Shown here piece by piece: positions 32,039-59,075 of a stretch of DNA of 64,000 nucleotides; positions within the stretch are counted from its first letter, which is position 1, and each line of letters starts with the position of its first letter. The notes under the pieces are model-generated. The model was given only the letters and a program-made list of their open reading frames with translations, did no database searches and was not told where the DNA came from. This stretch comes from a bacterium (GTDB lineage Bacteria > Zixibacteria > MSB-5A5 > GN15 > FEB-12): the NCBI GenBank assembly GCA_043819515.1, contig JBDRES010000003.1, positions 2,522 to 66,521 of the forward strand, given 5' to 3'. A program made the translations under genes and the position numbers.

Positions 32039-33463
32039 ATGACCGACAGAAAACCAGCCGTGGCCGGGCTTTTTTATCCGGCCAATCCCGGCGAGCTAGC
32101 CAAAACGATTGCCGGTTTTTTTAGCGAAGTTGACAAGCTGCCGATTGACGGGCATCCCCTGGCGCTTATCGCCCCCCATGCCGGCTACCCGTATTCGGGA
32201 CGGGTGGCGGCCAAAGCTTATAAGCTGCTTGAGGGTTTGGAATACGACACGGTGGTGGTAGTGAGCCCGTCTCACACCGTTTTTTTTAGGGGGGCCTCGA
32301 TTTACCCCGGCGATGCCTATGTGACTCCGTTGGGGAGAATCGAGGTTGACCGGCAACTGGTTCGCGAAATGGTCGGCATAAACCCGGCCGTGCATGTTTC
32401 GGACAAAGGCCACGCCACCGGCGCCACTCGTGGTGAACATGCCTTGGAAGTACAATTGCCGTTTCTGCAAATCGTGCTGGGACAGTTCAAGCTTATCCCG
32501 ATCGTAATGGGTGACCAGGAGGAGGACACCATTGCCGGTCTGGCCGGAGTTCTCTCCACGACGCTGGCCGGAAGGCGAGCCCTCATGGTAGCCTCGACAG
32601 ATCTGTCGCACTTTCATTCGGAGAAATCAGCCAGGCAGCTGGATGCATCTGTCCAGAGGGCGATCGAACGATTTGACCCGGATCTGCTTATGGAAACGCT
32701 GGAGGCGGGCAGTGGCGAGGCCTGTGGCGGTGGACCGGTGGCCGCTGTGATGACAGCCGCTCGACGACTGGGGGCGAACTCGGTGCAGTTTGTTGATTAC
32801 ACTACCTCGGCTCAGACCACGGAGGATCTGGACAGTGTCGTCGGCTATCTGTCTGCGGTCGTGTTGCGACCCAGGACGGCAAAACGCAAGGCGGCGACCA
32901 TAGGCAGCCCGGCGGCTTCATCCAAGAAGAGTGAGCATCTGACGACCGCCGGTCGGGAGAAGCTGATCGGCATCGCCCGCCAGGCCATCTCGCATAAGAT
33001 TCAGGGGATGGCCTATCAACCGCCCCGCGATGAGTCGCTTGATATGCGGCGCGGCATCTTCGTGACGGTGACAATCGGCGAGCAATTACGCGGTTGTATC
33101 GGACAGGTACGGGCTCGTCAACCTCTGTGGCAGGCGGTAGCCGATATGGCCGTGGCAGCCGCCTTTGAGGACCCCCGCTTTGCCCCTCTGACTGAGGCCG
33201 AGTATGGCGACATTGAGATTGAGATCTCCGTGCTGACGCCGCTTGAACGGGTACACAATTTTGACGAGATCGAAGTCGGCCGCGACGGACTAATGGTCAA
33301 ACTCGATTTTCACTCGGGGCTGTTGTTGCCGCAGGTGGCCACGGAAAACCAGTGGGACCGCACGACCTTTCTGGAGCAAACCTGTCTCAAGGCCGGCCTG
33401 CCAAAAAACCGCTACCTCGACAAGCACGCCGAAGTCTACAAATTCCAGACGCAGGTATTCTAG
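32039..33463 (+). CDS. AmmeMemoRadiSam system protein B (MEMO-like) fused to protein A (AMMECR1), copy 1, no leader
   Basis: The N-terminal half has AGLFYPANPGEL...LIAPHAGYPYSGRVAA...STDLSHF (MEMO / TIGR04336-like). After a basic linker, the C-terminal half has GIFVTVTIGEQLRGCIGQV...AAFEDPRFAPL...EISVLTP...LLPQVA (AMMECR1 / TIGR04335-like). Confidence 0.85.
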   Translation: MTDRKPAVAGLFYPANPGELAKTIAGFFSEVDKLPIDGHPLALIAPHAGYPYSGRVAAKAYKLLEGLEYDTVVVVSPSHTVFFRGASIYPGDAYVTPLGRIEVDRQLVREMVGINPAVHVSDKGHATGATRGEHALEVQLPFLQIVLGQFKLIPIVMGDQEEDTIAGLAGVLSTTLAGRRALMVASTDLSHFHSEKSARQLDASVQRAIERFDPDLLMETLEAGSGEACGGGPVAAVMTAARRLGANSVQFVDYTTSAQTTEDLDSVVGYLSAVVLRPRTAKRKAATIGSPAASSKKSEHLTTAGREKLIGIARQAISHKIQGMAYQPPRDESLDMRRGIFVTVTIGEQLRGCIGQVRARQPLWQAVADMAVAAAFEDPRFAPLTEAEYGDIEIEISVLTPLERVHNFDEIEVGRDGLMVKLDFHSGLLLPQVATENQWDRTTFLEQTCLKAGLPKNRYLDKHAEVYKFQTQVF

Positions 33464-33565
33464 CCCGGACCAGTATCCAACGCCGGCGAAAATTGACCGG
33501 CGCCGACTGGTCGGGGCGGCGCTATTGACTTGTTCGGCGACGCGGCAGGACGTAAATTACCCGCT

Positions 33566-34558
33566 ATGAATTTGTCGCTACCATCAGTCCTGATCACCGG
33601 GGCCAACGGTTTTGTCGGCACTCGCTTGTGCCTGAGACTCCTAGGCGAGGGTTACCGGGTGACGGCCGGTGTGCGGCGTACGTCCGATTTGACCTCCCTG
33701 GCCCGGATGGACCTGGAATATCGCTACGGGGATATCAATGATCCGAACAGCCTGGGGGAAATGGTCACCGGTGTGGACTACATCGTACACAATGCCGGTC
33801 TGACCAAAGCCAGGCACCCCGATGATTTCACGCGGGTCAATGTCGAGGGTACCAAGTCGCTCATGGCCGCCGTCAAGGCGCACAATCCGCAACTCAAGCG
33901 CCTGGTGTATGTTTCTTCGGTCGCCGCCACCGGGCCGTCCGAACCGCATCAGGCCAGGTCCGAGGCCGATCAGCCGCAGCCTATTACCCAATACGGTCGG
34001 TCCAAGCTGGCCGGTGAGCAGGCGGCGCTGGCTTACAGCCGTGACTTTCCTGTCACGGCTATTCGTCCGCCGGGAGTTTATGGCCCCGGTGATCGGGAGA
34101 TATTCAGTTTTTTCCAGACCGTCTATCGCGGCTTAAAACCGCTAATCGGTGATCCCAACCGACGTCTCAATCTGGTCCATGTCGACGACCTCTGTCGTGG
34201 TTTGGCCCTGGCGTTGGCCGACAAGGAGACCTCCGGCGAGGTGTTTCACATTGCCGAGGATCGCGCCTACAGCATGATCGAACTTGTCACTCTTCTCCAA
34301 CAGGGATGTGGACGAAGAGCCTTCAATCTCAAGCTACCCGGTGGTCTGTTTCGGTTGATAGCGGCTGTTTCCGAGGGTGTCTTTAAGTTGTTTGGCCGGA
34401 CCCCCATGCTGACCCGCGAGAAAGCCGATGAACTGCTAGCATCATGGGAGGTTTCGGTTGAAAAAGCTCACGAACTGCTTGGCTATCGGTCGCGAATTCC
34501 GTTTGCCCAAGGTGCGGTCGAGACCTATCAATGGTATCTCAAAAATGGTTGGTTATGA
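33566..34558 (+). CDS. NAD-dependent epimerase/dehydratase (extended SDR)
   Basis: I place the start at ATG 33566. Rossmann motif VLITGANGFVGTRL. Catalytic YGRSK (YxxxK). Confidence 0.8.
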   Translation: MNLSLPSVLITGANGFVGTRLCLRLLGEGYRVTAGVRRTSDLTSLARMDLEYRYGDINDPNSLGEMVTGVDYIVHNAGLTKARHPDDFTRVNVEGTKSLMAAVKAHNPQLKRLVYVSSVAATGPSEPHQARSEADQPQPITQYGRSKLAGEQAALAYSRDFPVTAIRPPGVYGPGDREIFSFFQTVYRGLKPLIGDPNRRLNLVHVDDLCRGLALALADKETSGEVFHIAEDRAYSMIELVTLLQQGCGRRAFNLKLPGGLFRLIAAVSEGVFKLFGRTPMLTREKADELLASWEVSVEKAHELLGYRSRIPFAQGAVETYQWYLKNGWL

Positions 34559-34988: not shown

Positions 34989-36155
34989 ATGGCGACGCGA
35001 CCGGATTTCTCTAAAGCGCGGCGGCTTTTTCCACATGCTCCCAAGACAGTCTATTTCAATTCGGCTTCATATGGACCGTTTTGCCGGCCGGTGGCGGCCG
35101 CCATTGAGCGCAATGTTGCTGTCCGTCTGGCCGCCAACCGCGATGACTCCCACGACGCTTTTGCCGCCTCCGACCATCTGCGTACAGTATACGCCGGCAT
35201 GATCGGCGCTCACAAACGCGAGGTCGGCATCGGCCTCAACACCACCTTCGGACTAAACATCGCCGCCTTCGGTCTGTCTTTGAAGCCGGGTGATGAAGTC
35301 CTCATTCCTGATATCGAGTTTCCGGCCATAGCATATACCTGGCGGGCGGCGGCCGAAGCGGCCGGATTCAAAGTCAAATTTGTCAAGACGGTCGATCGCT
35401 GCTTTGACCTGAACCGCCTTGAGGATGCTATCACCACCCGTACGCGAGTGGCCAGCCTGTCCTGGGTGCAGTTTTTCAACGGTTACAAAGTCGATCTGTC
35501 ACCCCTGGCCAAGTTGTGTCGTGATCGCGATATCCTGCTGGTTGTGGACGGTATCCAGGGCATGGGGGTCGAGCCGATCAACGTCCGCCAACTGGGCGTA
35601 GACGTTTTCACCTCCGGCTGTCAGAAGTGGATGTTGTCGCCGCAGGGTGGTGGCTTTTTCTATCTCTCTGATCGCATCCGGGACAAACTCAAACATCCCT
35701 TCATGAGCTGGCTGGGCGTCGACTGGAAAGTGCAGTTCACCGATCTGTTCCGCTACGACCTACCCTGGTTTGACTCGGCCAGGCGTTTCGAGATGGGCTA
35801 CTATGCCGTCCTGAATCTGCTCGGCATGGAAGCGGCGGCCGGAGTCTTCACCGATTTGGGAATACGCAATATCCAGGGTCACAACTATGATCTGATCGAC
35901 CGGCTGGCCGACTTCATCAAAAAGCACCCCTTCTATCGGGCCACCTCGTCATTGGATCGGCGCCATCGCTCGTCGATCTTTACTTTCACCTGTCGCGACT
36001 ATCAAAAGCTGCACAAGAAAATACTCAAAGCCGGCATCGTGCTGGTGCAACGGGAGGGCTCGATACGGGTGTCGGTGCACCTGTTCAACAACCAGCGGGA
36101 TATTGACCGTCTGAAGTCGGTTCTTGAGGATTTCGCACGCGAACATCGTCCGTGA
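34989..36155 (+). CDS. Class V aminotransferase / cysteine-desulfurase-like PLP enzyme
   Basis: Fold-type I blocks, including DVFTSGCQKWMLSPQGGG (PLP-lysine motif SxxK...P.G.G) and LLVVDGIQGMG. Confidence 0.75.
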   Translation: MATRPDFSKARRLFPHAPKTVYFNSASYGPFCRPVAAAIERNVAVRLAANRDDSHDAFAASDHLRTVYAGMIGAHKREVGIGLNTTFGLNIAAFGLSLKPGDEVLIPDIEFPAIAYTWRAAAEAAGFKVKFVKTVDRCFDLNRLEDAITTRTRVASLSWVQFFNGYKVDLSPLAKLCRDRDILLVVDGIQGMGVEPINVRQLGVDVFTSGCQKWMLSPQGGGFFYLSDRIRDKLKHPFMSWLGVDWKVQFTDLFRYDLPWFDSARRFEMGYYAVLNLLGMEAAAGVFTDLGIRNIQGHNYDLIDRLADFIKKHPFYRATSSLDRRHRSSIFTFTCRDYQKLHKKILKAGIVLVQREGSIRVSVHLFNNQRDIDRLKSVLEDFAREHRP

Positions 36156-37635: not shown

Positions 37636-38682
37636 ATGGAGCTACCGTTCGACAAGATCCTCATTACCGGAGCCAGCGGCTCACTGGGCAGGCAGCTGGT
37701 GCACGATTTCACCCGGCTAGGTGTCCAGCCGATCGCGCAGGTTCGGGCCACCTCCAACATCACTTACCTTGAGCAGCATAAGTTGGAGCTGCGTCAGGCC
37801 GACTTTGGCCAGGACGCCGATCTGAGCCGATTGGTCGATGGGGTCGACGCCATTATTCACACGGCGGCCTGGGTCAATTTCCGTCGCGACCGGCTGACTC
37901 AGTTCACGCAGATCAACGCCCTGGCGGCCACCAACCTCTTTCGGTCGGCCCAGAAAGCGGGTGTCAAGCGGTTTGTGCACGTTTCCACAGTCGCTGCCGT
38001 GGGTGCGATGGAGCGGCGTCTGCTGATTGATAAGCAAGTCGTAGGTGACGCCTTCATTGCTGACGAGGACACCCCCTTCAACCTCGGCGGCCTGCGGATT
38101 CCTTACATAATGACCAAGCATGCGGCAGAATTGGAACTGCTCGAACTGGCCGACGAAGGTCGGACCGAGTTGGTGATAGTGAACCCATCGATAATCGTGG
38201 CCCCGTCGCGTTCCGGCGATGATCGCAGCAAAGCGCGCCGGCGACTGGGACGATGGATACTGCCGGATCTTGCCAATCGTGTCAATCTGGTCGACATCAG
38301 AGATGTTTCGAGCGGCATTGTGGCCGCTTTGGCAAAAGGCCGTCATCGACAGCGGTACATCCTGGGTGGCGACAACATTTCCGGCCGCGATCTCTTTTTG
38401 GCCATATCATCTCACCTGGACAAGACTCCGCATCTGGTAGGCATCCCGCGTCCCCTGCTGAATCTGGCGGCTCGGGCGGCGGTCTTTCTGAGCAAACTTA
38501 GAGGCCGGGCCAAGGTGTCGTTCTATCCCGATATTGTCCGTATGCTGGACTACGACTGGGCCTACTCATCGCTCAAGGCGCGGCGGGAGCTGGGCTATCG
38601 CAGCCGCTCGGTCCATGCATCACTGCAGGATCTTCTGACAAACAGCTTTTCGGGCACGTACATGAAACCGTCCCAGCCATAA
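37636..38682 (+). CDS. NAD-dependent epimerase/dehydratase (extended SDR), second copy
   Basis: ILITGASGSLGRQLV Rossmann motif and YIMTKHAAE (YxxxK). Confidence 0.75.
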   Translation: MELPFDKILITGASGSLGRQLVHDFTRLGVQPIAQVRATSNITYLEQHKLELRQADFGQDADLSRLVDGVDAIIHTAAWVNFRRDRLTQFTQINALAATNLFRSAQKAGVKRFVHVSTVAAVGAMERRLLIDKQVVGDAFIADEDTPFNLGGLRIPYIMTKHAAELELLELADEGRTELVIVNPSIIVAPSRSGDDRSKARRRLGRWILPDLANRVNLVDIRDVSSGIVAALAKGRHRQRYILGGDNISGRDLFLAISSHLDKTPHLVGIPRPLLNLAARAAVFLSKLRGRAKVSFYPDIVRMLDYDWAYSSLKARRELGYRSRSVHASLQDLLTNSFSGTYMKPSQP

Positions 38683-39291: not shown

Positions 39292-40245
39292 ATGCAGCGC
39301 CGCGACTTTATCAAAAAAACAACCTCGGCCATCGCTCTGGCCGCCACCACCGGTGGCGTGGGGTGGGTATTTCACAATCGCGAGCCGGCGGCCTACGAGA
39401 CCCCGCTGGCGGCCAGCCTGTCCTTTGGTGTCGCTGACGATCCCCGGCTGCCGCGCCTCACACTGGCCCACAACGAAAATCCCGCGTCAGCCCTCAACGC
39501 TGCTCTGGATGCTATCGGCGGCATTCGTCGCTTTGTCCGGCCGGGAGAACGAGTGGTGATAAAGCCGAACGTCGGATGGGATCGCACGGCGGCGCAGGCG
39601 GCCAATACCAATCCTGATCTGGTCGGGCAGGTGGTGCGGCTATGTCTGGATGCCGGAGCGCGCGAAGTTGTTGTGACCGATGTCACCTGCAACGACCCGC
39701 GACGGTGTTTTTTGCGATCGGGCATCAGCGAGGCCGCCGAGGCAGCGGGCGGGCTGGTCAGACTGCCGACCGATGAGGACTATGAAACAGTTGATCTGGG
39801 CGGCGAGTTGCTGACCGGTTGGCCGGTGCTGAAGCATTTCCTGCATGCCGATCGCATGATCAACATGCCGGTGGTGAAACACCATTCGCTGACCGGCGGC
39901 ACTATCGGCCTGAAGAATCTATATGGCATCATCGGTGGTCATCGCAACCAGTTACACCAGCAGATCGATCAATCAATAGTGGATCTGGCGAATTTCTGTC
40001 GACCGACTTTGACTATTGTCGACGCTACCCGCGTCTTGCTTCGAGGCGGACCGCAGGGCGGCTCGCTCGATGATGTCGAGATCAAGAATACCGTTATGTG
40101 TGCTACCGATCCGGTTGCGGCCGATTCGCGCGCGGCCGAGTTCCTGGGCCGTCAGGGCGACACCATCGGGCATGTCGTTTTGGCCCAGAGGGCCGGACTG
40201 GGAAATCTTGACTACCGCCAGGCAGGCTACCAAGAGGTAGGCTGA
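39292..40245 (+). CDS. DUF362-domain protein with twin-arginine-type leader
   Basis: I place the start at ATG 39292. MQRRDFIKKTTSAIALAATTGGVGW has an RR-x-F-(I/L)-K motif plus an h-region. DUF362 blocks are RVVIKPNVGW...TNPDLV..VV and VVKHHSLTGGTIGLKNLYG...LTIVDA. Confidence 0.75.
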   Translation: MQRRDFIKKTTSAIALAATTGGVGWVFHNREPAAYETPLAASLSFGVADDPRLPRLTLAHNENPASALNAALDAIGGIRRFVRPGERVVIKPNVGWDRTAAQAANTNPDLVGQVVRLCLDAGAREVVVTDVTCNDPRRCFLRSGISEAAEAAGGLVRLPTDEDYETVDLGGELLTGWPVLKHFLHADRMINMPVVKHHSLTGGTIGLKNLYGIIGGHRNQLHQQIDQSIVDLANFCRPTLTIVDATRVLLRGGPQGGSLDDVEIKNTVMCATDPVAADSRAAEFLGRQGDTIGHVVLAQRAGLGNLDYRQAGYQEVG

Positions 40246-41930
40246 TGAGCATTCGCACGGTCAGGACTCTCAGACGTGTCTCCCAGGTTTTGTTTTTTGC
40301 GATTTTCTTCTGGCTAATACTCAAGACCAACTTCGACCCCGGGGCAAGCCTTAAGGAAGGGGCTGAAATCGCGTTGCCTTACCCGGTGAGTATCGGGCTG
40401 GAGTTTGATCCACTGGTGGCGCTGACGACCCTTCTGGCCAACGGGACGCTGTACAAGGGTTTGTTTTGGTCATTGGTGATATTGATTCCGACAATATTCC
40501 TGGGCCGGTTTTTCTGCGGCTGGGTGTGCCCGATGGGATCACTAAACCACTGGCTGTCGGAGATCCGCTCGGAGCGGATTGTTTATCGCGGCAAGGGGAA
40601 GATGGCCAGGAACCGCTATCACTGGTACCAGCGGATAAAATACTATGTTTTCTTTTTTGTCGTGGCGGCGGCTTTGACCGGAAGTCTGCTATCTGGTCTG
40701 TTGGACCCGCTGCCGCTCCTGGCTCGGTCCCTGGGCACGGTAGTACTGCCGACTCTGCACTCGACCTCGGTGGGTATTCTGGGGTGGATCAAATCACTGG
40801 GCTGGCCGCCGCTTTCAGGATTCGCTCAAGCGGCATACGACATGATCGCGCCGCTGATTTTGAACTTCCGCCTGGTGCACTTCCATACCGTCATCACGAT
40901 CGGCACTTTCTTTGTTCTGATATTGCTGGCCAACCGCATCTTCACCAGGTTTTGGTGCCGGGCGTTGTGTCCGTTGGGAGCCATGTTGGGGCTGTTCTCC
41001 CGGTTTGCAATACTCGGCCTGAAAAAAGATGAAGCGACCTGCGACCATTGCAATCTCTGCCTGCTGCACTGCCAGGGGGCCGACAATCCCGATGTGGGTA
41101 CCAAGTGGCGCCAGGCGGAGTGTCATCTTTGTTTGAACTGTCAGGCTGTTTGTCCTCGCAATTCGCTCAGCTTTGAGTTCTTTCCAGATCATCAGTCCAG
41201 TCGCGTCAATCCGCTGCCGCTGAACACTATCGATGTCTCGCGACGTAAAGCTGCAGCCTCGATTGCGGCCGGGCTGGTGGCGGTGCCATTTTTGCGTTCG
41301 GGGGATGCCTTCGAAGCCAATCCCAGCCCCTTCTTGATACGGCCGCCGGGAGCGGTGATCGAGGCGGATTTCCTGGCCCGCTGCATTCGCTGCGGTCAAT
41401 GTATGCGGGTTTGCCCCAACAATGCCCTTCATCCGACTTTGCTGCAATCCGGCGCGGAGGGAATCTGGACGCCGCTTCTCATCCCTCGCATCGGGTATTG
41501 CGAACCGACTTGTACCCTCTGCGGCGAGGTCTGCCCGACCGGAGCCATCCTGCCGCTCACGATCAAGCAGAAGGTTGGCGATGAGGACCAACCCCCCAAC
41601 CGGATCGGCACCGCCTTTTTTGATCGCGGTCGCTGTCTGCCCTGGGCGATGGCCAAACCCTGCATTGTCTGCGAGGAGTGGTGCCCGACTTCGCCCAAGG
41701 CCATCTATATCAAAGAAGAATCCGTCACCGATCGCACCGGCCGATCGGTGGTCGTCAAGCGACCGCAAGTGGATCCGGACTTGTGTACCGGCTGCGGCGC
41801 TTGTGAATTCGCCTGTCCCGTGATTGATCGGCCGGCGGTCTACGTCACGAGTGTTGGCGAGTCCCGATCACCCCAGAGGCAGCTCCTGTTGGAGCGCTCG
41901 CGCCAGCCGGCCCCGGACCGTAGTCTCTAA
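40245..41930 (+). CDS. Integral-membrane polyferredoxin (NapH/MauN-like 4Fe-4S binding protein)
   Basis: Start overlaps the upstream stop (TGATG). Several TM helices carry FFCGWVCPMGS and FWCRALCPLGA motifs. Ferredoxin motifs are CDHCNLCLLHC, CHLCLNCQAVCP, CIRCGQCMRVCP, CTLCGEVCP, CIVCEEWCP and CTGCGACEFACP. Confidence 0.8.
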   Translation: MSIRTVRTLRRVSQVLFFAIFFWLILKTNFDPGASLKEGAEIALPYPVSIGLEFDPLVALTTLLANGTLYKGLFWSLVILIPTIFLGRFFCGWVCPMGSLNHWLSEIRSERIVYRGKGKMARNRYHWYQRIKYYVFFFVVAAALTGSLLSGLLDPLPLLARSLGTVVLPTLHSTSVGILGWIKSLGWPPLSGFAQAAYDMIAPLILNFRLVHFHTVITIGTFFVLILLANRIFTRFWCRALCPLGAMLGLFSRFAILGLKKDEATCDHCNLCLLHCQGADNPDVGTKWRQAECHLCLNCQAVCPRNSLSFEFFPDHQSSRVNPLPLNTIDVSRRKAAASIAAGLVAVPFLRSGDAFEANPSPFLIRPPGAVIEADFLARCIRCGQCMRVCPNNALHPTLLQSGAEGIWTPLLIPRIGYCEPTCTLCGEVCPTGAILPLTIKQKVGDEDQPPNRIGTAFFDRGRCLPWAMAKPCIVCEEWCPTSPKAIYIKEESVTDRTGRSVVVKRPQVDPDLCTGCGACEFACPVIDRPAVYVTSVGESRSPQRQLLLERSRQPAPDRSL

Positions 41931-41970: not shown

Positions 41971-44148
41971 TCAGCCCTGGCGACGACCTACAAATGTTAC
42001 CACCGCAACTATAACACCCAATCCGGCCAGGATGCCGGTGACACCTACTTGCGGCAGCAATATCGTCAAAGTAAACAGGGCGCCTGCGGCCGAGCCGACC
42101 AGATCCCAGGCGTAACTGACGCCGCGGTTGGCGTCAAACCTGTCACCGTACATCAGGCTACTCCCCACAACAAAGAGGGAGCCGGTGGCCAGCCCCAGAG
42201 TTACCAGCGTCAGCGAGTAATAGACCAGGGCGGTGTCAGCCGTGATCAGGTGCCAGGTGGTGGCCAGAAGGACTATCACCAACAACAACAGACCAACTCC
42301 CCACGCAGGTCTTGAGCGGAGGGGGTACGTGATCGAAGTATAGGTGCCCAGGGCCAGACCCAGCATGAAGGCACCAAACAGGACACCCAGGTCGGTATGT
42401 AAGGCGCCGGCGGTACTCTGGTACAGGTAGACTACTACCAGCTCGACAGCGATTGATCCAAACCCGGCCAGAAGCAGCAATGATCGGCCCATTGAGTTGG
42501 TCGGTATTCGTGCACGGCACAGAGGGCCGAGCACAACCAAGGCCAGCAATGCGATCAGGATCGGCCCGAGCCAGGTCTTCGACAGCGGACTGACCAAAGC
42601 CTGTGCCAGTGGTTTGGTCTGTGCCTGGTGTTGCAGATGAATCGACATGAGTGTCGGGCGTTCCCGACTGTTGGTCCGGGTCGGTTTTGATATCGCCGCC
42701 AGGAGTCGCTCGCTGGGCATCGGACTCAACTGATCGATCAGGTAGTCGTCCCTCACGTAGCGCGGTTGGTATGGCATAGCTGCCAGGCGGGCCGTGAGAG
42801 TATCGACCGGGATGCTCAACTCGCGATCGGTGCTCGCCCAAATGATCGTCGACGTGCCCGGCCAGCAGCCGACCCCAGGGAAAACATCAGCAACCGTATG
42901 GTAAACGGTGGCCACCGCCGCCTGGGTAGCCTGCGACAGATAGCGTTCGGTGTCATAGGGCAGGATGATCGACAGCAGTCCGTCCGCCGCCAGCTGTCCC
43001 TTAATTTGTTGCAACGCCGATCGGTTCAGGAGGCGTCCTCCGGTGTAGGTATCCAGCGGACCGGGTCGCAAAATGATGATGTCATAAGTTTCACGACCCT
43101 GTTGACGACCCAAGTATGACAGTGGATCATCGCTGATCCGCGTGAGCCGGGTGCCGGCTGGAGCGAGATCCTGCCAGAAACGTTGGACTTTGCGCCGTGG
43201 ATCACAGATCACCAGCTCTCGGCGATTATGCCCTTTGGTTATCGCCGCCACCAAACCATCGACGCTGCCATCGATGAATATCCGCTCGGCCTCAGGATGC
43301 ATCAGCAGCGATGGCAGGATAATGGTTTCAGCCTGGTTGGTGTCGGATACGATCGCCTCGGTCCGATTATTGGTGACGACAAAGACCTGTTCATCCCGCC
43401 GGGCTATGATCTGATGCGAGTATGGCGTATCAAACGACTCCAGGACTTCAAACGGGCGACAGCAGGCGGAATCCAGAGATTCGACCATCTCTGGTGCCTG
43501 GGCTGCCCACGCAAAGGCCAGGAGAGCAAACATGGCTGCGCCGATCGCGGTAGACAAACTGAGCAGGGGCGAGGTCCAACGGATTCCAAACATGGTCACG
43601 GTACAAACCATGAGGACGCTGTACCAATCATTGACCAGGCCGGTCAGTATTGTAACGGTCAATCCGGCAACAAAGGCTCCCAGGCCCTCCCACAGATAAA
43701 CCTGCGCGACTCCTGTGGCTGGACGCCAAGCCATTCTGGCCGCCTCGGCAAACATCCAGCCGCACAAAGAACCGACTGGAAGCATAGCCACAAATGCGGT
43801 AGCGGCGGCGGTGGCCAAGTCAATCTCCTCAAAGACAATACTTGATATGAGGCGTGGCGACATCCGTACCAGAGTGAAGCAGAATACTAAAATAACCCCG
43901 GCCGCGCTGGTCAGGATCGGCATTGATCGGGCCTTGCGGGCCATGCCGCCTATTGCCGCCCCGACCGCGACAGCGAGCAACCAGCCGGTCAGGCCGAAAC
44001 CGATCAGGATCTCGCTGCCACCGAAGGTGGCTGTTGTTTGGCGCAGCAGAATGACCTGCGCTCCGAGCGAAAACCAGCCAATCAAGAAGGCATACTGTCT
44101 AAGCGGGGCTTTCATTTGGTCACCACGTTGCCCAAAACCGACTCTCAT
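41971..44148 (-). CDS. Fused MFS-like polytopic membrane domain / spermidine-synthase-like (class I MTase fold) protein
   Basis: About 7 N-terminal and about 6 C-terminal TM helices flank a soluble domain with SpeE-like blocks (YSHQII, RIFIDGSVDGLV, YDIIILRPGPLDTYTGGRLL). The GxGxG motif is degenerate. An alternative start exists at ATG 44115. Confidence 0.6.
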   Translation of the reverse strand: MRVGFGQRGDQMKAPLRQYAFLIGWFSLGAQVILLRQTTATFGGSEILIGFGLTGWLLAVAVGAAIGGMARKARSMPILTSAAGVILVFCFTLVRMSPRLISSIVFEEIDLATAAATAFVAMLPVGSLCGWMFAEAARMAWRPATGVAQVYLWEGLGAFVAGLTVTILTGLVNDWYSVLMVCTVTMFGIRWTSPLLSLSTAIGAAMFALLAFAWAAQAPEMVESLDSACCRPFEVLESFDTPYSHQIIARRDEQVFVVTNNRTEAIVSDTNQAETIILPSLLMHPEAERIFIDGSVDGLVAAITKGHNRRELVICDPRRKVQRFWQDLAPAGTRLTRISDDPLSYLGRQQGRETYDIIILRPGPLDTYTGGRLLNRSALQQIKGQLAADGLLSIILPYDTERYLSQATQAAVATVYHTVADVFPGVGCWPGTSTIIWASTDRELSIPVDTLTARLAAMPYQPRYVRDDYLIDQLSPMPSERLLAAISKPTRTNSRERPTLMSIHLQHQAQTKPLAQALVSPLSKTWLGPILIALLALVVLGPLCRARIPTNSMGRSLLLLAGFGSIAVELVVVYLYQSTAGALHTDLGVLFGAFMLGLALGTYTSITYPLRSRPAWGVGLLLLVIVLLATTWHLITADTALVYYSLTLVTLGLATGSLFVVGSSLMYGDRFDANRGVSYAWDLVGSAAGALFTLTILLPQVGVTGILAGLGVIVAVVTFVGRRQG

Positions 44149-44157
44149 CCATCACTA

Positions 44158-45303
44158 TCAAAACCGGCCGACAATCTTGTGTCCGCACTGGCGACAATGG
44201 CCGGCATCGATGCCGACCAATCTGGTTTTGTAGCCGCGGCGTTCGACAATCATCTGGCCGCACCTGGGACAATAAGTCGACTCGGCCCGATGCTCAGGGA
44301 CGTTCCCCAAATAGACATATTCCAGTCCCTCGGATCGGCAGGCATCGTAGGCCCGTTCCAAGGTTGCCAGGGGAGTCTTGGGCAAATCCCGCAGAAGATA
44401 CTGGGGATGGAAGCGGCTGAAGTGAAGGGGTGTGTCAGTGCCCAGATGGCGCTTGATCCAGCGGGCCAACTCGGTGAACTCGGCCTCCGAATCATTCAGC
44501 GTCGGCACTACCAGGTAGACTATTTCCAACCACACCCCGGCCGCTTTGATTTGCTCCAGCGCCTTGAGCACCGGATCTAGTTCGCCGTGGACCACGTCAC
44601 GGTAATACTTCTGACGAATCGCCTTGAGATCGACCTTGATGGCATCAACTACCAGCAGTAGTTCGGCCAGCGGCTTGGTCTCAATATAACCACCGGTGAT
44701 GACTGCCGACCTGATCCCGGCGGTTCGAGCCAGCACCGCAATATCAAACATATACTCGTAAAAAACCACCGGCTCCGAATAGGTATAAGCGATGTTTGGA
44801 ATCTGCCGTTGCCGACAAGTTTCTACTATCTGCTGAGGCGTCAGGCGGTAGTTCTGCGTCTGTTCCGGTCGCGACTGTGAAATCTCCCAGTTCTGGCAGA
44901 ATTTGCAGTTGACATTGCACCCGGCGGTGGCCAGTGAGAAGGCTGTCGTGCCCGGATAAAAGTGATACAGCGGTTTCTTCTCAATAGGATCGATGTTTAC
45001 CGCGCAGGGCAAACCGTAGACCAACGTAAAATACTCATCGTTGCGGTTTTCACGAACACCGCAAAAGCCGCGCTCGACGTCGGTCACATAGCAGTGGCGA
45101 GGGCAGAGACCGCATTCGATGCCACCCTCGTCCAATTTCTTGTAATGCCGGGCAGGTACGGATGAGAGCTCATTCCCCAGATCAAAGGCACACGCGTTTT
45201 CAATGCCGCCCAGCATCTCCGGCCACATATCCGTCTGAGCGGCGGCTGTCACCGCCGCCGTACACCCCATGCATTTCAGGAATTGCCGCCGCCGCATCAC
45301 CAC
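44158..45303 (-). CDS. AmmeMemoRadiSam system radical SAM enzyme with twin-arginine-type N-terminus
   Basis: ECGLCPRHCYV...GFCGVREN...DPIEKKPLYHFYPG...GCNVNCKFCQNWEISQ is the TIGR04337-like pattern with a CxxxCxxC cluster. The N-terminus is MVMRRRQFLKCMGCTAAVTAAAQ. There is a C-terminal CPRCGQ...CRQCGH pair. The start overlaps the upstream DUF362 stop by 7 nt. Confidence 0.85.
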   Translation of the reverse strand: MVMRRRQFLKCMGCTAAVTAAAQTDMWPEMLGGIENACAFDLGNELSSVPARHYKKLDEGGIECGLCPRHCYVTDVERGFCGVRENRNDEYFTLVYGLPCAVNIDPIEKKPLYHFYPGTTAFSLATAGCNVNCKFCQNWEISQSRPEQTQNYRLTPQQIVETCRQRQIPNIAYTYSEPVVFYEYMFDIAVLARTAGIRSAVITGGYIETKPLAELLLVVDAIKVDLKAIRQKYYRDVVHGELDPVLKALEQIKAAGVWLEIVYLVVPTLNDSEAEFTELARWIKRHLGTDTPLHFSRFHPQYLLRDLPKTPLATLERAYDACRSEGLEYVYLGNVPEHRAESTYCPRCGQMIVERRGYKTRLVGIDAGHCRQCGHKIVGRF

Positions 45304-46217
45304 AACTCCCCGGCGACAAGTCGCCCGTCATCACGAAGTACTCTCACTTCCAGGTCGATTTGATCCATCTGAGCAGTGCCCAGCCCCAGAAACTCGGCCG
45401 AGCTTAGGTATTTTGCCGGACGACCGCTTGCCTCCAACGTGGGCAGGCCGTGACTTGTCCGCAGATGTTCTAAGATCGTCAGCCCAACTATATCGGCGGC
45501 GACAGGATCCTTAGACAGAACAATCCCGCCATACCAGGCCACATGCTTGGGGCTGTAACCCGGACCGCGATGGTATTGCACACTGACTGCGTCGACAACC
45601 GTCAGCCGCTGAGTCTTCTTGATCGGGGCCAGGTTATTGACATGGGCGACATGCGGGTCGCAGTTGTTGTCGTGGTATTTGTTGGGGTTGTTGATGGCGC
45701 CGTACATGTTTTTCAGACCGCACGACAATCCCGCCAGCGAATGATCCTTTAGGATCGGCAGGTTGATATTGGAGTTCACCGTTTCTGTCAAAATGCTGCT
45801 AACCAGACTGTTCACTTCACCCGAGGTATAGAAGTAGTGTGAATAGCCGGTCGGATGAGCATCGGTGCCCAGGCAGCGACGGCCAAATGAAGCCGCATTG
45901 AGTTTGAAGCCTGCCTGGCGCAATTCCTGGCTGGTCCGTTCCCAAACAATCAGATCGTTGGCGGCCCAGCCTGATTCCTCCAGGAGATCACTCAGCGCAT
46001 CTGCCAGCGCGACCGAAGTAGAGTTCTTGTCGTGGGCGACGCAGTTGGGTTTCATACCGACCGGCCCCCCGGGCAACAGCTCGTGCAAAGCGGTCGAGAC
46101 ATCGGCCGCGCTGCACAACAGCTTCAGTCCCGACTCAAGGAGCTGACGGTAATCGTTTCGGGCGAAAGGGATCGGTTCTCCCGATACCGCCCGGCGAATG
46201 ACTACGACGCGACTCAT
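45297..46217 (-). CDS. DUF362-domain protein (no leader)
   Basis: VGMKPNCVAHD...ILKDHSLAGLSCGLKNMYGAINNP...LTVVDAVSVQYHRGPG follows the same block order as the 39292 paralogue. Confidence 0.7.
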   Translation of the reverse strand: MSRVVVIRRAVSGEPIPFARNDYRQLLESGLKLLCSAADVSTALHELLPGGPVGMKPNCVAHDKNSTSVALADALSDLLEESGWAANDLIVWERTSQELRQAGFKLNAASFGRRCLGTDAHPTGYSHYFYTSGEVNSLVSSILTETVNSNINLPILKDHSLAGLSCGLKNMYGAINNPNKYHDNNCDPHVAHVNNLAPIKKTQRLTVVDAVSVQYHRGPGYSPKHVAWYGGIVLSKDPVAADIVGLTILEHLRTSHGLPTLEASGRPAKYLSSAEFLGLGTAQMDQIDLEVRVLRDDGRLVAGELW

Positions 46218-46324: not shown

Positions 46325-47809
46325 ATGATAGTTGTGTTGGCACTGGTTTTGTCTTTGGCCGCGGCGACGGCGTCCAAGCAGCCGAGTGTGCGCCCGCCGG
46401 CGGTGGCGGGTCAGTTCTACCCGGCCGATGCGGGCGAGTTGTCGCGACTGGTGCAGACCCATCTTGATGCCGTTGATTTGCAGGCCCCGAGCCAGGGAGA
46501 TTTGCTGGCCCTTATCGTCCCGCACGCCGGATTGGTCTATTCCGGCTCGGTGGCAGCTTACGGATACGGCTTGCTTGCAGACACAGATTTCAAGCGCGTG
46601 GTACTCTGTGGCCCGTCGCATCGCTTTGGTTTCCAGGGAGCCGCTGTGGCTTTTCCCGGCCAGGTGTGGCGTACGCCCCTGGGCGATGTTATCTGCGATT
46701 CCCAGTGGTGCGCTTTGTCCTCACAACAGCCCGGGATCTCGATCTTGGCCGACGCGCACCGTCAGGAGCATTCCCTGGAAGTTCAGTTACCCTACCTGCA
46801 GACAGTCCTTGCCGATTTTTCGATTGTTCCCATTGCCCTGGGCTATCAGGATTCGCAGGGTATCGACGCTCTGTATCAGGCCTTGCTGGAACTGCCCTGG
46901 GATGATCGCACGCTCTTGGTGGCCTCGACCGACTGGCAACATTACCGGTCGGCCGCCGAAGGTTGGCCCATAGATTCGCTCGGTCTGGACTGTGTCTTGA
47001 ACCTCGACGCTGCTCGGCTGCAGCGCGAATTGCAGAATAAGGCTGTCGAAGCTTGCGGTGGCGGGGCCGTTGCTGCGATTCTAAAAACCGCCGTCGACCG
47101 CGGTGCTAATCGGGCGGTACTCCTAAAATACGGCGACTCCGGCGACAAGACCGGGGACAAAAGCAGCGTTGTTGGTTATGCCGCCCTCGCCGTTTACCGA
47201 GTCCGGGATTTAATGCAAGCCGAAGGGGGTAGCCTCATGGAGAGCGATTTGGCCGCCGAAGATTTCCTGTCGTCCCAGCACAAAGAGCAGCTACTGGAGA
47301 TCGCCCGCCGGAGCATCGAAACCTACCTTCACGGTCAGGCGCCTCCGGATTTCCAGGTCGACGACCTTCTGTCGAGACCAGGGGCGGCCTTTGTTACCTT
47401 GAAGAGGGAGGGGCGGCTGCGCGGCTGTATCGGCTATACCGAAGCCGTCGAGCCGCTTTTCAAAACGGTGTCGCAGTGTGCCGTCTCGGCCGCATTCTCC
47501 GATCACCGTTTCCCGCCCGTGGCTGCCTCGGAACTGGCGCGCATAACGATTGAAATCTCCGCTCTGACGCCATTAAAGCCGGTCGGCTCATTGGATGAGA
47601 TCGAGGTTGGTCGCGACGGCCTGATGATCATTCGCGGCCGAAATCGGGGGTTGTTGCTGCCGCAGGTGGCCGTGGAGCAAGGTTGGGACCGTGAAGCTTT
47701 TCTGGAAAACACGTGTCGCAAGGCCGGCTTGGCCCTTGATTGCTATCGACAGGAAGCGACTCGGATTTTCCGTTTCCAGGCGCTTATTTTCAGCGAGCCG
47801 GAGAAGTAG
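46325..47809 (+). CDS. AmmeMemoRadiSam system protein B (MEMO-like) fused to protein A (AMMECR1), copy 2, with Sec-type leader
   Basis: MIVVLALVLSLAAATASKQP is followed by AGQFYPADAGEL...LIVPHAGLVYSGSVAA...STDWQHY (MEMO-like). Later blocks are AAFVTLKREGRLRGCIGYT...AAFSDHRFPPV...EISALTP...LLPQVA (AMMECR1). Confidence 0.85.
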   Translation: MIVVLALVLSLAAATASKQPSVRPPAVAGQFYPADAGELSRLVQTHLDAVDLQAPSQGDLLALIVPHAGLVYSGSVAAYGYGLLADTDFKRVVLCGPSHRFGFQGAAVAFPGQVWRTPLGDVICDSQWCALSSQQPGISILADAHRQEHSLEVQLPYLQTVLADFSIVPIALGYQDSQGIDALYQALLELPWDDRTLLVASTDWQHYRSAAEGWPIDSLGLDCVLNLDAARLQRELQNKAVEACGGGAVAAILKTAVDRGANRAVLLKYGDSGDKTGDKSSVVGYAALAVYRVRDLMQAEGGSLMESDLAAEDFLSSQHKEQLLEIARRSIETYLHGQAPPDFQVDDLLSRPGAAFVTLKREGRLRGCIGYTEAVEPLFKTVSQCAVSAAFSDHRFPPVAASELARITIEISALTPLKPVGSLDEIEVGRDGLMIIRGRNRGLLLPQVAVEQGWDREAFLENTCRKAGLALDCYRQEATRIFRFQALIFSEPEK

Positions 47810-57906: not shown

Positions 57907-58169
57907 ATGCAAATATGTCAGATATCCCCTGATCGCCCGGCGCCAGCTCGTCATCTGCTCTTCTTGCTCGTCTTGTTAGAAACATCTTGGCAAGAGGTGT
58001 ATGTTAAAATGGACAGTCGTATCTTCAGCCTCTGACCTTGTTCCCAGCTTATTAGCTGTAATATGTTTGCACTGACCAGTCGATGTTAGGGAATAGGTTC
58101 GCCGGCGGAGTGCTCTGAATCTTGCAACTTGTTTCGGTCACTACGATGCGAAACACTAAGGAAAGTGAG

Positions 58170-59075
58170 ATGTTGATAAGAAGACTGTTGTTGGTGTCGT
58201 TGGTGATGTCTGTAGCCGTACTTGCAGCTACAGGGGATTACAACGATCCTGCCACTGCATCGGGGACGAATTGGACCGATCCCACTAACGTATTTGCTGA
58301 CGATGGCAGTAGAACAATCTATGCTAATACAACACAAGATACTCTCTATGTGACTAATTTCACCGTCGGAGTCCCTTCCAATGCAGTCATTGATTCGATA
58401 TATCTGAGAGTCAATGGTAATGGTGCGGCAGTTCTTGCCGGCGGCCGAGAAATTGATGTTGCGCTGACAAAGAATGGTAGTAGCTATGTCGGAGATCTCA
58501 TGTACGGAGCACTAGCTAAAGATACTGATGCTGATCTAACCGGCACCGGCGCTACAAATCCCCTGTGGGGTGCAACCTGGACACCTGCTGAAATCAACGC
58601 TACGACCTTTGGCGTAATAATATTCAAGAGGAACACAAGCGCTGATGCAATAAACATTGACCACGTGCAATTGAAAGTGTTCTGGACGGTATCGATAAGT
58701 GTCTCAGTTGGCGACCCGACATTTACTTTCGGCACCAATCTACTGAACACTTGGCTGACAGCCCAAACCAGCGTCATCACCAACGATGGAACAGGTGCCG
58801 AGAATTTCATCGGTCAAATCAGCCAGTTCACAGACGGTACCGATAGTTGGACGATCAGCGACGCAGTCAATGGAGCCGATCAGATTCGCGCGCAGTGGTC
58901 AACGACTAGTGATTCAGGACCCTGGACCGATATCTCAGCCTATGCAACAGATTTCACCATTGCCACCGGTGTGGCAGCCTCCGGCACAGTCACCCTGTGG
59001 TTTCGTATTGAAACACCGACCAGCACTGTCTCCCACAATGAGTACTCTTCCACCATGACTGTGACAGCTGAGTAG
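58170..59075 (+). CDS. Secreted hypothetical protein (two beta-rich domains; C-terminal domain paralogous to the next gene)
   Basis: I place the start at ATG 58170, behind AAGGAAAG. Signal peptide LLLVSLVMSVAVLAATG. The C-terminal half (FTFGT...VITNDGTGAENF...LWFRIETPTSTVSHNEYSSTMTVTAE) aligns by eye with 59287..59826. Confidence 0.55.
   Translation: MLIRRLLLVSLVMSVAVLAATGDYNDPATASGTNWTDPTNVFADDGSRTIYANTTQDTLYVTNFTVGVPSNAVIDSIYLRVNGNGAAVLAGGREIDVALTKNGSSYVGDLMYGALAKDTDADLTGTGATNPLWGATWTPAEINATTFGVIIFKRNTSADAINIDHVQLKVFWTVSISVSVGDPTFTFGTNLLNTWLTAQTSVITNDGTGAENFIGQISQFTDGTDSWTISDAVNGADQIRAQWSTTSDSGPWTDISAYATDFTIATGVAASGTVTLWFRIETPTSTVSHNEYSSTMTVTAE

Follow-up and report, generated by a model that had tools for sequence, protein, structure and literature searches.

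A putative Tat-exported, extracytoplasmic variant of the AmmeMemoRadiSam system in a member of the Zixibacteria

Results

The radical SAM enzyme and its start codon

The window, the whole 64,000-nucleotide stretch of DNA that was analysed, carries on the minus strand an open reading frame (44158..45303) whose translation, MVMRRRQFLKCMGCTAAVTAAAQ..., was identical to that given in an earlier sequence-only reading. The product was identified as the AmmeMemoRadiSam system radical SAM enzyme, the name also given by NCBI to a protein that is 100% identical (P0001). TIGR04337 scored 378 bits against a cut-off of 220 (residues 52-381, profile positions 2-333 of 349) and PF04055 also matched in the Pfam profile scan. 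The sequence-only reading supported its start with an ATG overlapping the stop of the upstream DUF362 gene by 7 nt; the codon that gives this overlap, at 45303, is in fact GTG (TGA at 45299-45297). The support for a translationally coupled ATG held nonetheless, with an overlap of 1 nt (TGATG) at 45297. A GGAG lies 8 nt 5' of this ATG and only 2 nt 5' of the GTG at 45303, and the ATG position is the start chosen by the gene callers and found in nearly all of 120 homologues. The likely start is the ATG and not the in-frame upstream GTG, which gives a protein of 379 amino acids encoded at 44158..45297 on the minus strand.

By its motifs the open reading frame is judged to encode a catalytically intact AmmeMemoRadiSam radical SAM enzyme. 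The family alignment located the radical SAM cluster motif CNVNCKFC (C127-x3-C131-x2-C134; 44896..44919, minus strand), a type invariant in 90 of 90 aligned members, and CX3CX2C was 100% retained in both the leader-bearing and the leaderless subsets. An N-terminal four-Cys motif, CGLCPRHC...C (C62, C65, C69 and C79; 45061..45114, minus strand), has two invariant residues (C62 and C79) and two that are at least 90% conserved (C65 and C69) among the 90 diverse family members; retained by leader-bearing members, it is probably an auxiliary Fe-S or metal site that would bind a cluster. The C-terminal CPRC...CRQC pair described previously is real, its four Cys (C343, C346, C368 and C371; 44185..44271, minus strand) forming a zinc-ribbon or rubredoxin-like motif that is nearly invariant in the same 90 members. 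Other family-invariant sites were retained at 80-100% among leader-bearing members. The possibility that the exported copies are pseudo-enzymes was ruled out, the catalytic and family-invariant residues being kept.

The AF2 model of the enzyme core had a pLDDT mostly of 85-98. A search of solved structures returned none of the enzyme's own family, the sole match being the pyruvate formate-lyase activating enzyme PFL-AE at E ~2e-4. By Foldseek the nearest solved fold was likewise that of PFL-AE (3c8f/3cb8), one of the glycyl-radical activases, with E 1e-13, a TM-score of 0.75-0.80 on the target and the CX3CX2C motif at the same position. This likeness is at the level of fold only; TIGR02493 scored 62.4 against a cut-off of 231.75 bits and TIGR02494 55.3 against 174.35. 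The enzyme of the window differs from PFL-AE by the N-terminal four-Cys motif, the C-terminal zinc-ribbon-like motif and an export leader, and no glycyl-radical enzyme was present among the genes examined in the locus.

The N-terminal leader

The enzyme N-terminus is MRRRQFLK-CMGCTAAVTAAA|QT. All elements of the twin-arginine leader claimed in the sequence-only reading were found in residues 1-20 (MRRRQFLKCMGCTAAVTAAA; 45238..45297, minus strand), namely the RR motif, an uncharged stretch and a cleavage-type site. The n-region is a single Met, RRQFL (residues 3-7) fits the TatP default pattern RR.[FGAVML][LITMVF], and 14 uncharged residues follow K8. These include a 12-residue Cys/Ala-rich h-region, CMGCTAAVTAAA, with a putative signal-peptidase site that had been read as an AxA-like AAQ; a small-residue site is indeed there, at a position better given as A18-A19-A20|Q21 (A-A-A|Q-T). 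Among close homologues the -3 residue was acceptable (A/G/T/V/S) in 115 of 119 and the -1 residue was S, T, A, C or G in 96 of 119, the A-x-[SAT] site being retained in about 80% of the clade. In a 66-sequence clade alignment R3 and R4 were invariant, and F6, C9, G11 and C12 were at least 90% conserved. The AF2 model placed residues 1-36 at a pLDDT below 50, unpacked on the confident core.

The description of the leader as "textbook" was too strong in that it scored below the cut-off of both Tat-signal HMMs (TIGR01409 TAT_signal, 14.2 bits against 16.7; PF10518, 11.3 against 22.7). The mean Kyte-Doolittle value of the h-region was 1.5, which is under transmembrane and Sec-signal values and compares with 2.65 for the Sec-type signal of the adjacent Memo-AMMECR1 protein, and no 19-residue window reached the transmembrane threshold. 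A stable uncleaved anchor, an option raised before, is unlikely because the h-region is short (12 residues) and weakly hydrophobic and the A-x-[SAT] site after it is for the most part conserved. The KCxGC segment was also considered as a lipobox and ruled out, as its Cys residues come before the hydrophobic stretch and not after it. On the preferred reading the N-terminal ~20 residues are a functional twin-arginine signal that is probably removed by cleavage. Between leader and core lies a clade-specific conserved segment, QTDMWPEMLGGIENACAF (residues 21-38; 45184..45237, minus strand), which is outside the TIGR04337 profile and of low AF2 confidence. Its residues P26, G30, G31, N34, A37 and F38 were invariant or nearly so in the 66 sequences, and it is a possible docking motif at the mature N-terminus.

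Spread and conservation of the leader

None of the 120 closest homologues lacked the first 25 residues, a loss that the sequence-only reading had named as evidence against a leader; all 120 retain the leader. The family-wide survey that had been proposed was positive, with 29 RR leaders among the 150 top-scoring representatives at 50% identity and a KR or near-motif leader in a few more; the RR leaders were otherwise unrelated in sequence. With the leader in about a fifth of these representatives and in most of the nearest species-level relatives, its characterization as unusual for this family does not stand. Among the 80 loci of related GTDB species, ~55 had an RR or KR leader; these belong to Acidobacteriota, Zixibacteria, KSB1, Desulfobacterota, Planctomycetota, Bacteroidales, Ignavibacteria, Verrucomicrobia, Myxococcales and one archaeon. 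In 82 leaders that otherwise could not be aligned, conservation was confined to two columns, the invariant second Arg and the motif Phe (at least 90%), and 32 of the 82 came up to about the TIGR01409 cut-off, the best with E 6e-7. The earlier alternative that the leader is a remnant was rejected because it is universal in close homologues and because the same design, RR-x-F-L and an uncharged stretch, recurs with divergent sequence in many phyla.

The enzyme has a Sec/SRP-type hydrophobic N-terminus in ~12 loci, with charge flanks that likewise put the domain outside. A truly leaderless enzyme was found in six loci together with the same signal-bearing partners and the membrane protein described below; no frameshifted or split leaders were found upstream of these six enzymes. 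Cys was strongly enriched in the enzyme leaders compared with other Tat-like leaders of the same loci.

Genes adjoining the enzyme

A fusion of the AmmeMemoRadiSam proteins B and A, Memo-AMMECR1, is encoded at 46325..47809 on the plus strand (TIGR04336, 248 bits; TIGR04335, 186 bits). Its gene is divergently transcribed at a distance of 108 bp, an arrangement also found in loci L001 and L002 and in many GTDB loci. The protein begins with a Sec-type hydrophobic N-terminus, MIVVLALVLSLAAATA|SK (46325..46372, plus strand), ahead of a family profile that begins at residue 23, and Sec or lipoprotein signals were also present on the homologues in L001, L002 and ~30 other loci. Among loci in which both N-termini were readable, enzyme leader and partner signal occurred together in 28 (the window included), a leader without a partner signal in none, a partner signal without an enzyme leader in six and neither in three (Fisher p = 0.011, uncorrected for phylogeny).

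Directly downstream of the enzyme is the gene for a polytopic membrane protein of 725 amino acids (41971..44148, minus strand; the NCBI start at 44115 gives 714 amino acids). A scan with Pfam and NCBIfam gave no match to this protein even at E = 10. Its layout in the AF2 model is seven helices, a spermidine-synthase-fold domain of ~300 residues and a further 6-7 helices. The central domain matched the polyamine aminopropyltransferase 1uir by Foldseek (E 5e-9, TM-score 0.62-0.69 on the target), and phmmer matched the protein to 1uir with E 0.008. The nucleotide-binding glycine loop of this SpeE-like domain is degenerate in the clade of the window, which has DGSVDG as opposed to GGGxGG in most distant homologues. 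In a positive-inside analysis of 35 homologues, alternating K/R-rich loops put the SpeE-fold domain outside, and the domain is predicted to face outward. Homologues were recovered by phmmer on the locus proteins, a word-indexed search having given seven relatives. Of the 80 loci, over 40 have the membrane protein as a neighbour of the enzyme, and it is missing from the fully leaderless loci (L051, L071 and L075). The conserved order of the module is DUF362, enzyme and membrane protein, with the Memo-AMMECR1 fusion divergent.

The gene upstream of the enzyme (45297..46217, minus strand), the stop of which overlaps the enzyme start, encodes a DUF362 protein (PF04015) of 306 amino acids without a leader. 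DUF362 orthologues in this position lack a leader in the window, L001, L002, L003 and L010 and bear their own RR leader in 10 other loci; the leaderless protein is a candidate Tat hitchhiker. A second DUF362 protein (39292..40245, plus strand; PF04015, 165 bits) has its own Tat leader, MQRRDFIKKTTSAIALAATTGG, which scored 21.2 bits with TIGR01409, over the cut-off of 16.7.

A polyferredoxin that is a NapH-NapG fusion is encoded at 40245..41930 on the plus strand (both matches below threshold, NapG at 104.6 and NapH at 78.9 bits). It has an RR segment in its interior, SRRKAAASIAAGLVAVPFL (41238..41306, plus strand), at about residue 332-354. It adjoins the module only in the window, L002, L004 and L011; L054 and L064 differ in having a NapH-like part fused to the 14-helix membrane protein described above. 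The polyferredoxin is a candidate trans-membrane electron route for the module. A protein of this class from MLMS-1 was shown experimentally to need Sec plus Tat, by which the NapG-like Fe-S domain is placed outside via Tat (Tooke et al. 2017, PMC5449189). The tested protein and that of the window share a NapH-like membrane part and a NapG-like four-cluster domain, and the RR segment of the former lies at residues 338-359 (PMC5449189). In distinction from that protein, the polyferredoxin of the window is tied to an AmmeMemoRadiSam module, by adjacency in few loci only.

Discussion

The three families of the canonical cytoplasmic AmmeMemoRadiSam system, TIGR04335 (A, AMMECR1), TIGR04336 (B, Memo) and TIGR04337, are all adjacent in the window and above their curated cut-offs, and the enzyme has the same invariant Cys motifs. 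The module of the window departs from the canonical system in the Tat leader on the enzyme, in the fusion of A and B behind a Sec-type signal, and in the addition of the 14-helix protein with its SpeE-fold domain and of DUF362 proteins. On balance, comparison of the sequences favours a Tat-exported, extracytoplasmic variant of the AmmeMemoRadiSam system, a reading held somewhat more probable than otherwise. The earlier suggestion that the enzyme acts outside the cytoplasm gained from the comparison, in that the partner has a signal wherever the enzyme has a leader (28 of 28) and a polyferredoxin and a Tat-tagged DUF362 protein adjoin; export itself is a step that we infer.

In the proposed mechanism the enzyme would fold in the cytoplasm, acquire its Fe-S and metal centres there and then be exported by Tat with presumptive cleavage of the leader; in the clade of the window the leaderless, translationally coupled DUF362 protein may be carried along as a hitchhiker. 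At the outer face of the cytoplasmic membrane the enzyme would act with the Sec-exported Memo-AMMECR1 and with the SpeE-fold domain, outward in the predicted topology, on a substrate proposed to be some envelope molecule. The likeliest electron route, where present, would be the NapH-NapG polyferredoxin with the Tat-tagged DUF362 protein, and SAM would have to reach the enzyme there as well.

Several known systems offer partial parallels. Tat-exported Fe-S proteins, such as NapG and the small subunits of hydrogenases, likewise have an RR-x-F-L-K leader and fold around metal clusters before export (PMC10924467, PMC5449189). They differ in being electron carriers without a soluble cytoplasmic co-substrate, which a SAM-consuming enzyme would need. 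In terms of Tat hitchhiker systems, the possible leaderless passenger here is the DUF362 protein from the overlapping gene. HxsB/C likewise tie radical SAM chemistry to periplasmic products, but there the export signal is on the substrate and here it is on the enzyme itself. Further radical SAM maturases of exported proteins that stay cytoplasmic are anSME and QhpD.

Radical SAM enzymes are regarded as confined to the cytoplasm because their chemistry needs SAM and an electron donor of very low potential. We know of neither SAM nor such a low-potential donor in the periplasm. The NapGH-type module normally operates at quinol potential. Literature searches found no export-tagged radical SAM enzyme; they did not cover the comparative work of Burroughs et al. 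2019 on Memo-AMMECR1-radical SAM contexts. Two observations bear on the proposed location of the chemistry. The leaderless enzymes with exported partners in six loci imply that the enzyme's step need not occur outside. Furthermore, no Fe-S loading route compatible with a Sec/SRP-type N-terminus is known to us, so that the Sec-like enzyme leaders suggest the topology logic may be incomplete.

[quoted passage not shown] The problem of SAM and reductant then disappears, and the same exported partners are served by leaderless enzymes in six loci. The leader is moreover under both Tat-signal HMM cut-offs, its 12-residue h-region holds a conserved C-x2-C pair, and Cys enrichment sets such leaders apart from other Tat-like ones. 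However, RR-x-F-L and the uncharged stretch are conserved while the remaining leader drifts, the Tat HMM level is passed by 32 of 82 diverse leaders, and the A-x-[SAT] cleavage site is mostly retained. Whenever the enzyme has an N-terminal signal, whatever its type, a signal is present on the partner as well, and even for the Sec-like variants the charge flanks put the domain outside.

Less probable still is that the leader is recognized by Tat while the chemistry takes place in the cytoplasm before export, or once after it with preloaded SAM and electron, so that the enzyme, loaded with its cofactors, is mainly a carrier or activase and escorts or modifies partners, the leaderless DUF362 protein for one. 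Both SAM and reductant are established as cytoplasmic, the nearest solved fold is that of an activase, PFL-AE, and it is in the cytoplasm that characterised radical SAM maturases work on exported proteins, as HxsB/C do on the periplasmic effector HxsA. The DUF362 protein is leaderless exactly in the clade with the stop/start overlap, but in most other lineages it has its own Tat leader, which indicates that hitchhiking is not the general reason for the leader on the enzyme. Memo-AMMECR1 leaves on its own in the unfolded state, by way of Sec or lipoprotein signals, which makes a cytoplasmic complex with the enzyme unlikely, and to spend a whole enzyme on a single turnover would be costly.

That the leader is an artefact of a wrong start codon or of a chance RR on an ordinary cytoplasmic enzyme is highly improbable: the TatP pattern alone matches 15% of cytoplasmic proteins with RR near the N-terminus and the profile of the canonical family starts no earlier than residue 52, but translation from the ATG is coupled to the stop of the preceding gene and GGAG is at the right distance, any start between leader and core would delete conserved residues, and the artefact is effectively refuted, on sequence comparison, by the extension and motif common to 120 of 120 homologues and the recurrence of the leader.

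The preferred reading, an exported variant of the system, can be extended to a radical SAM pathway that lies wholly outside the cytoplasm, a proposal that is tentative and in our estimate doubtful. The Tat-exported holo-enzyme would be served by the weakly MFS-like 14-helix partner, which would supply SAM or substrate to the SpeE-fold domain and the enzyme. Low-potential electrons would be passed over the membrane via the NapH-NapG-type polyferredoxin and Tat-exported DUF362 proteins, and the Sec-exported Memo-AMMECR1 would complete the modification of a lipid or isoprenoid-type molecule of the envelope. If true, it would be the first case of radical SAM chemistry outside the cytoplasm.

The conservation of Memo and AMMECR1 extends from bacteria to humans, and they have been linked to human disease. 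To our knowledge neither has a known biochemical function, and the same holds for either version of the AmmeMemoRadiSam system. A module of enzyme, Memo-AMMECR1, 14-helix/SpeE-fold protein and DUF362 would put the function of Memo and AMMECR1 at the cell envelope, and a pathway wholly outside the cytoplasm would, if true, give a tractable bacterial handle on their role. An export-tagged subfamily of this size and phylogenetic breadth would mean either that SAM and strong reductant are supplied outside the membrane in some way not yet recognised, or that Tat leaders have a second use that has likewise gone unrecognised. The enrichment of Cys in the leaders hints at a role beyond targeting.

Identity and start site of the radical SAM enzyme

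The minus-strand open reading frame at 44158..45303 translates exactly as given in the sequence-only reading. The start region contains a GTG at 45303, a second GTG and an ATG at 45297. Since the TGA stop of the upstream DUF362 gene (45297..46217, minus strand) occupies 45299-45297, the 7-nt overlap reported there holds for GTG 45303 but shrinks to 1 nt (TGATG) for the ATG. The sequence GGAG lies 8 nt upstream of the ATG but just 2 nt upstream of GTG 45303, and a start at the ATG position, giving 379 aa, is called in nearly all homologues. The N-terminus is taken here as MRRRQFLK. Coupling is similarly tight in two related contigs, with overlaps of 4 nt and 8 nt.

In a profile search of the window proteins the enzyme (44158..45297, minus strand) scored 378 bits against TIGR04337 (cut-off 220) and also matched PF04055, while glycyl-radical activase models stayed far under their cut-offs; the open reading frame encodes a genuine AmmeMemoRadiSam radical SAM enzyme. 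Because the TIGR04337 match begins only at residue 52, the protein extends ~50 residues beyond the N-terminal end of the canonical family. The identical NCBI protein (P0001) derives from a MAG labelled unclassified 'bacterium', and the nearest named relatives are from MAGs of Zixibacteria and the FCB group. A 90-sequence alignment revealed the CX3CX2C motif in 100% of the 25 leader-bearing members, with the remaining family-invariant positions 80-100% kept, roughly equal to the 61 leaderless members; two further Cys motifs, CPxC...CxxC at the C-terminus and a four-Cys motif at the N-terminus, occur throughout the family. The AF2 model has a confident core, for which PFL-activating enzyme is the closest solved fold, and leaves residues 1-36 unpacked (pLDDT <50). 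With its two or three metal sites the enzyme belongs to the type of cargo that requires Tat, not Sec.

The twin-arginine leader and its conservation

The leader (45238..45297, minus strand) combines an RR motif with a Cys-containing h-region. RRQFL fits the default TatP pattern and is followed, after the Lys, by an uncharged run of 14 residues. The 12-residue h-region CMGCTAAVTAAA has a mean hydropathy of 1.5, too low for a transmembrane segment by any threshold and far short of the 2.65 reached by the Sec-type signal on the adjoining Memo-AMMECR1 fusion. A plausible signal-peptidase site is predicted between A-A-A and Q-T; at the aligned position in close homologues, residue -3 is acceptable in 115/119 and residue -1 in 96/119. 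The leader scored 14.2 bits against TIGR01409 (cut-off 16.7) and 11.3 bits against PF10518 (cut-off 22.7), so the earlier description of it as textbook was too strong.

The pattern xRRxF[LIM][KR]C.GC... was present in 120/120 of the best homologues (65-72% identity), and both Arg residues were invariant in a 66-sequence alignment. Because the leader is kept or recurs in homologues, it survives the homologue comparison that had been named beforehand as its refuting test. At an E-value limit of 1e-30, a HMMER search of 50%-identity cluster representatives returned 1,479 proteins. The 150 best-scoring of these include 29 with an RR leader, a few with a KR or near-motif leader, 8 with a hydrophobic N-terminus lacking RR and 13 with long N-terminal fusions; 95 have no N-terminal extension. 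A GTDB scan with one genome per species yielded 80 enzyme loci from many phyla, with an RR or KR leader in ~55, a very hydrophobic N-terminus without RR in ~12 and no leader in ~14. The RR or KR leaders occur in Acidobacteriota, Zixibacteria, KSB1, Eisenbacteria, Poribacteria, Desulfobacterota, Planctomycetota, Bacteroidales (mostly S-K-R-E-F-I-K), Ignavibacteria, Verrucomicrobia, Myxococcales and one Aenigmatarchaeota. With these counts, the leader cannot be called unusual within the family, as had been suggested.

Past the motif the leaders are unalignable to one another (mean column identity 21%), with the second Arg invariant and the Phe at least 90% conserved. Judged from the alignment, such divergence around a kept motif is the signature of selection on a targeting design, not of shared descent. 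Roughly the TIGR01409 cut-off is reached by 32/82 diverse leaders, the best with E 6e-7.

Within 22 residues downstream of the motif, at least one Cys was found in 59/82 enzyme leaders versus 3/18 other Tat-like N-termini from the same loci (p = 2e-5, Fisher), and at least two in 37/82 versus 2/18 (p = 0.007). In the close clade, 108/120 leaders have at least two (KCxGC pair). The Cys residues in the h-regions (alignment A2; 45238..45297, minus strand, in the window) are often paired, 2-8 residues apart.

Predicted export signals of the Memo-AMMECR1 partner

The window has a module in common with two long related contigs: a Memo-AMMECR1 fusion (46325..47809, plus strand, in the window) diverges from a gene set that runs DUF362, enzyme, polytopic membrane protein of ~715 aa. 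All three fusions start with Sec-type signals. Partners in the 80 GTDB loci were located by phmmer and their N-termini read; many of the Memo-AMMECR1 fusions carry lipoprotein-type signals. Where both N-termini were complete, window included, enzyme leader and partner signal occurred together in 28 loci, the leader without the signal in 0, the signal without the leader in 6 and neither in 3 (p = 0.011 by Fisher test, without phylogenetic correction).

A second Memo-AMMECR1 fusion of 474 aa (32039..33463, plus strand; TIGR04336 267 bits, TIGR04335 176 bits) begins MTDRKPAVAG, without a signal peptide; the organism is therefore predicted to have one exported and one cytoplasmic copy. No radical SAM gene lies beside this fusion within the window, which holds only one radical SAM partner for the two. 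Around it are two HpnA-like (hopanoid-associated sugar epimerase-like) SDR genes and a class V aminotransferase/cysteine desulfurase-like gene (33530..34558, 34989..36155 and 37636..38682, all plus strand).

The membrane protein and candidate electron route

The membrane protein (41971..44148, minus strand) adjoins the enzyme in >40 of the 80 loci, the archaeal locus included, and was missing from the three fully cytoplasmic loci in a phmmer search of the 80. It had no Pfam match in the window or the two related contigs; one distant homologue is annotated PF01564. The fold of the central ~300 residues is that of a polyamine aminopropyltransferase, with 1uir matched at E 5e-9 by Foldseek and at E 0.008 by phmmer; the AF2 model places this domain after seven predicted helices and before six or seven more. 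Since short loops alternate between K/R-rich and K/R-poor in a 35-sequence alignment, a heuristic, as opposed to a dedicated topology prediction, puts both termini inside and the central domain outside. GGGxGG...D..DP..NRFYT motifs are kept in most distant homologues, whereas the glycine loop of the window's clade is degenerate (DGSVDG versus GGGxGG). The start is ambiguous: the longest frame opens at 44148 and gives 725 aa, and NCBI starts the protein at ATG 44115 (MKAPLRQ) for a length of 714 aa. In two Pirellulales loci (L054, L064) this 14-helix protein reaches ~1300 aa with a NapH-like segment fused in, in place of an adjacent NapH-NapG polyferredoxin.

In ten loci (L004, L005, L007, L009, L011, L013, L015, L020, L022, L062) the DUF362 protein encoded immediately upstream of the enzyme bears an RR leader itself; it lacks one in the window (45297..46217), L001, L002, L003 and L010. 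Its leaderless state in the window's clade, with stop-start overlap documented in the window, L001 and L002, suggests that it may hitchhike on the enzyme's leader. A second DUF362 gene (39292..40245, plus strand) encodes a Tat leader, MQRRDFIKKTTSAIALAATTGG, beginning MQRRDFIKK and scoring 21.2 bits against TIGR01409, above the 16.7 cut-off. Its stop overlaps the start of a NapH-NapG fusion polyferredoxin gene (40245..41930, plus strand); the pair recurs in L002, L004 and L011, and the polyferredoxin is adjacent only in these and the window among the 80 loci plus window. The polyferredoxin contains an internal twin-arginine segment, SRRKAAASIAAGLVAVPFL (41238..41306, residues 332-354). For the polyferredoxin of MLMS-1, which was shown to need both Sec and Tat, Tat dependence was demonstrated for the fifth helix (338-359), and the NapG-like domain is predicted on the periplasmic side (PMC5449189). 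The architectures match, as do the positions of the RR segment and that helix, so a candidate trans-membrane Fe-S wire is at hand.

Readings of the leader

The most economical reading, which we hold to be somewhat better than even, is a Tat-exported, extracytoplasmic AmmeMemoRadiSam variant built around the conserved membrane protein. Several points do not fit. Six loci (L037, L044, L054, L057, L064, L080) have a leaderless enzyme with a signal-bearing partner and the membrane protein, and no frameshifted leader was found upstream of these enzymes. Twelve loci, mostly Omnitrophota (L019, L021, L025, L029, L031, L035, L039, L041, L043, L045, L048, L049), have a Sec/SRP-type N-terminus without RR, for example MKKSLLLLILLLSVLFPAIGA followed by DQ, with charge flanks that predict the catalytic domain outside; no pathway is known by which Fe-S clusters could be inserted once Sec has exported the protein. 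The Cys-richness of the leaders also fits poorly, as does the supply of SAM, for which no source outside the membrane is known.

The main rival, in which the N-terminal segment does not direct export and the enzyme remains at the inner face, seems unlikely. More doubtful again is that export is genuine but catalysis cytoplasmic or single-turnover. The leader as an artefact is essentially excluded. A literature search found no paper on an export-tagged radical SAM enzyme; the main comparative study of genomic contexts of Memo, AMMECR1 and radical SAM proteins (Burroughs et al. 2019) lay outside that search.

Elsewhere in the window, the N-terminus MLIRRLLLVSLVMSVAVLAATG of a 318-aa open reading frame (58118..59072, plus strand) passes a loose Tat-like filter and looks more like a Sec-type signal with an incidental RR.
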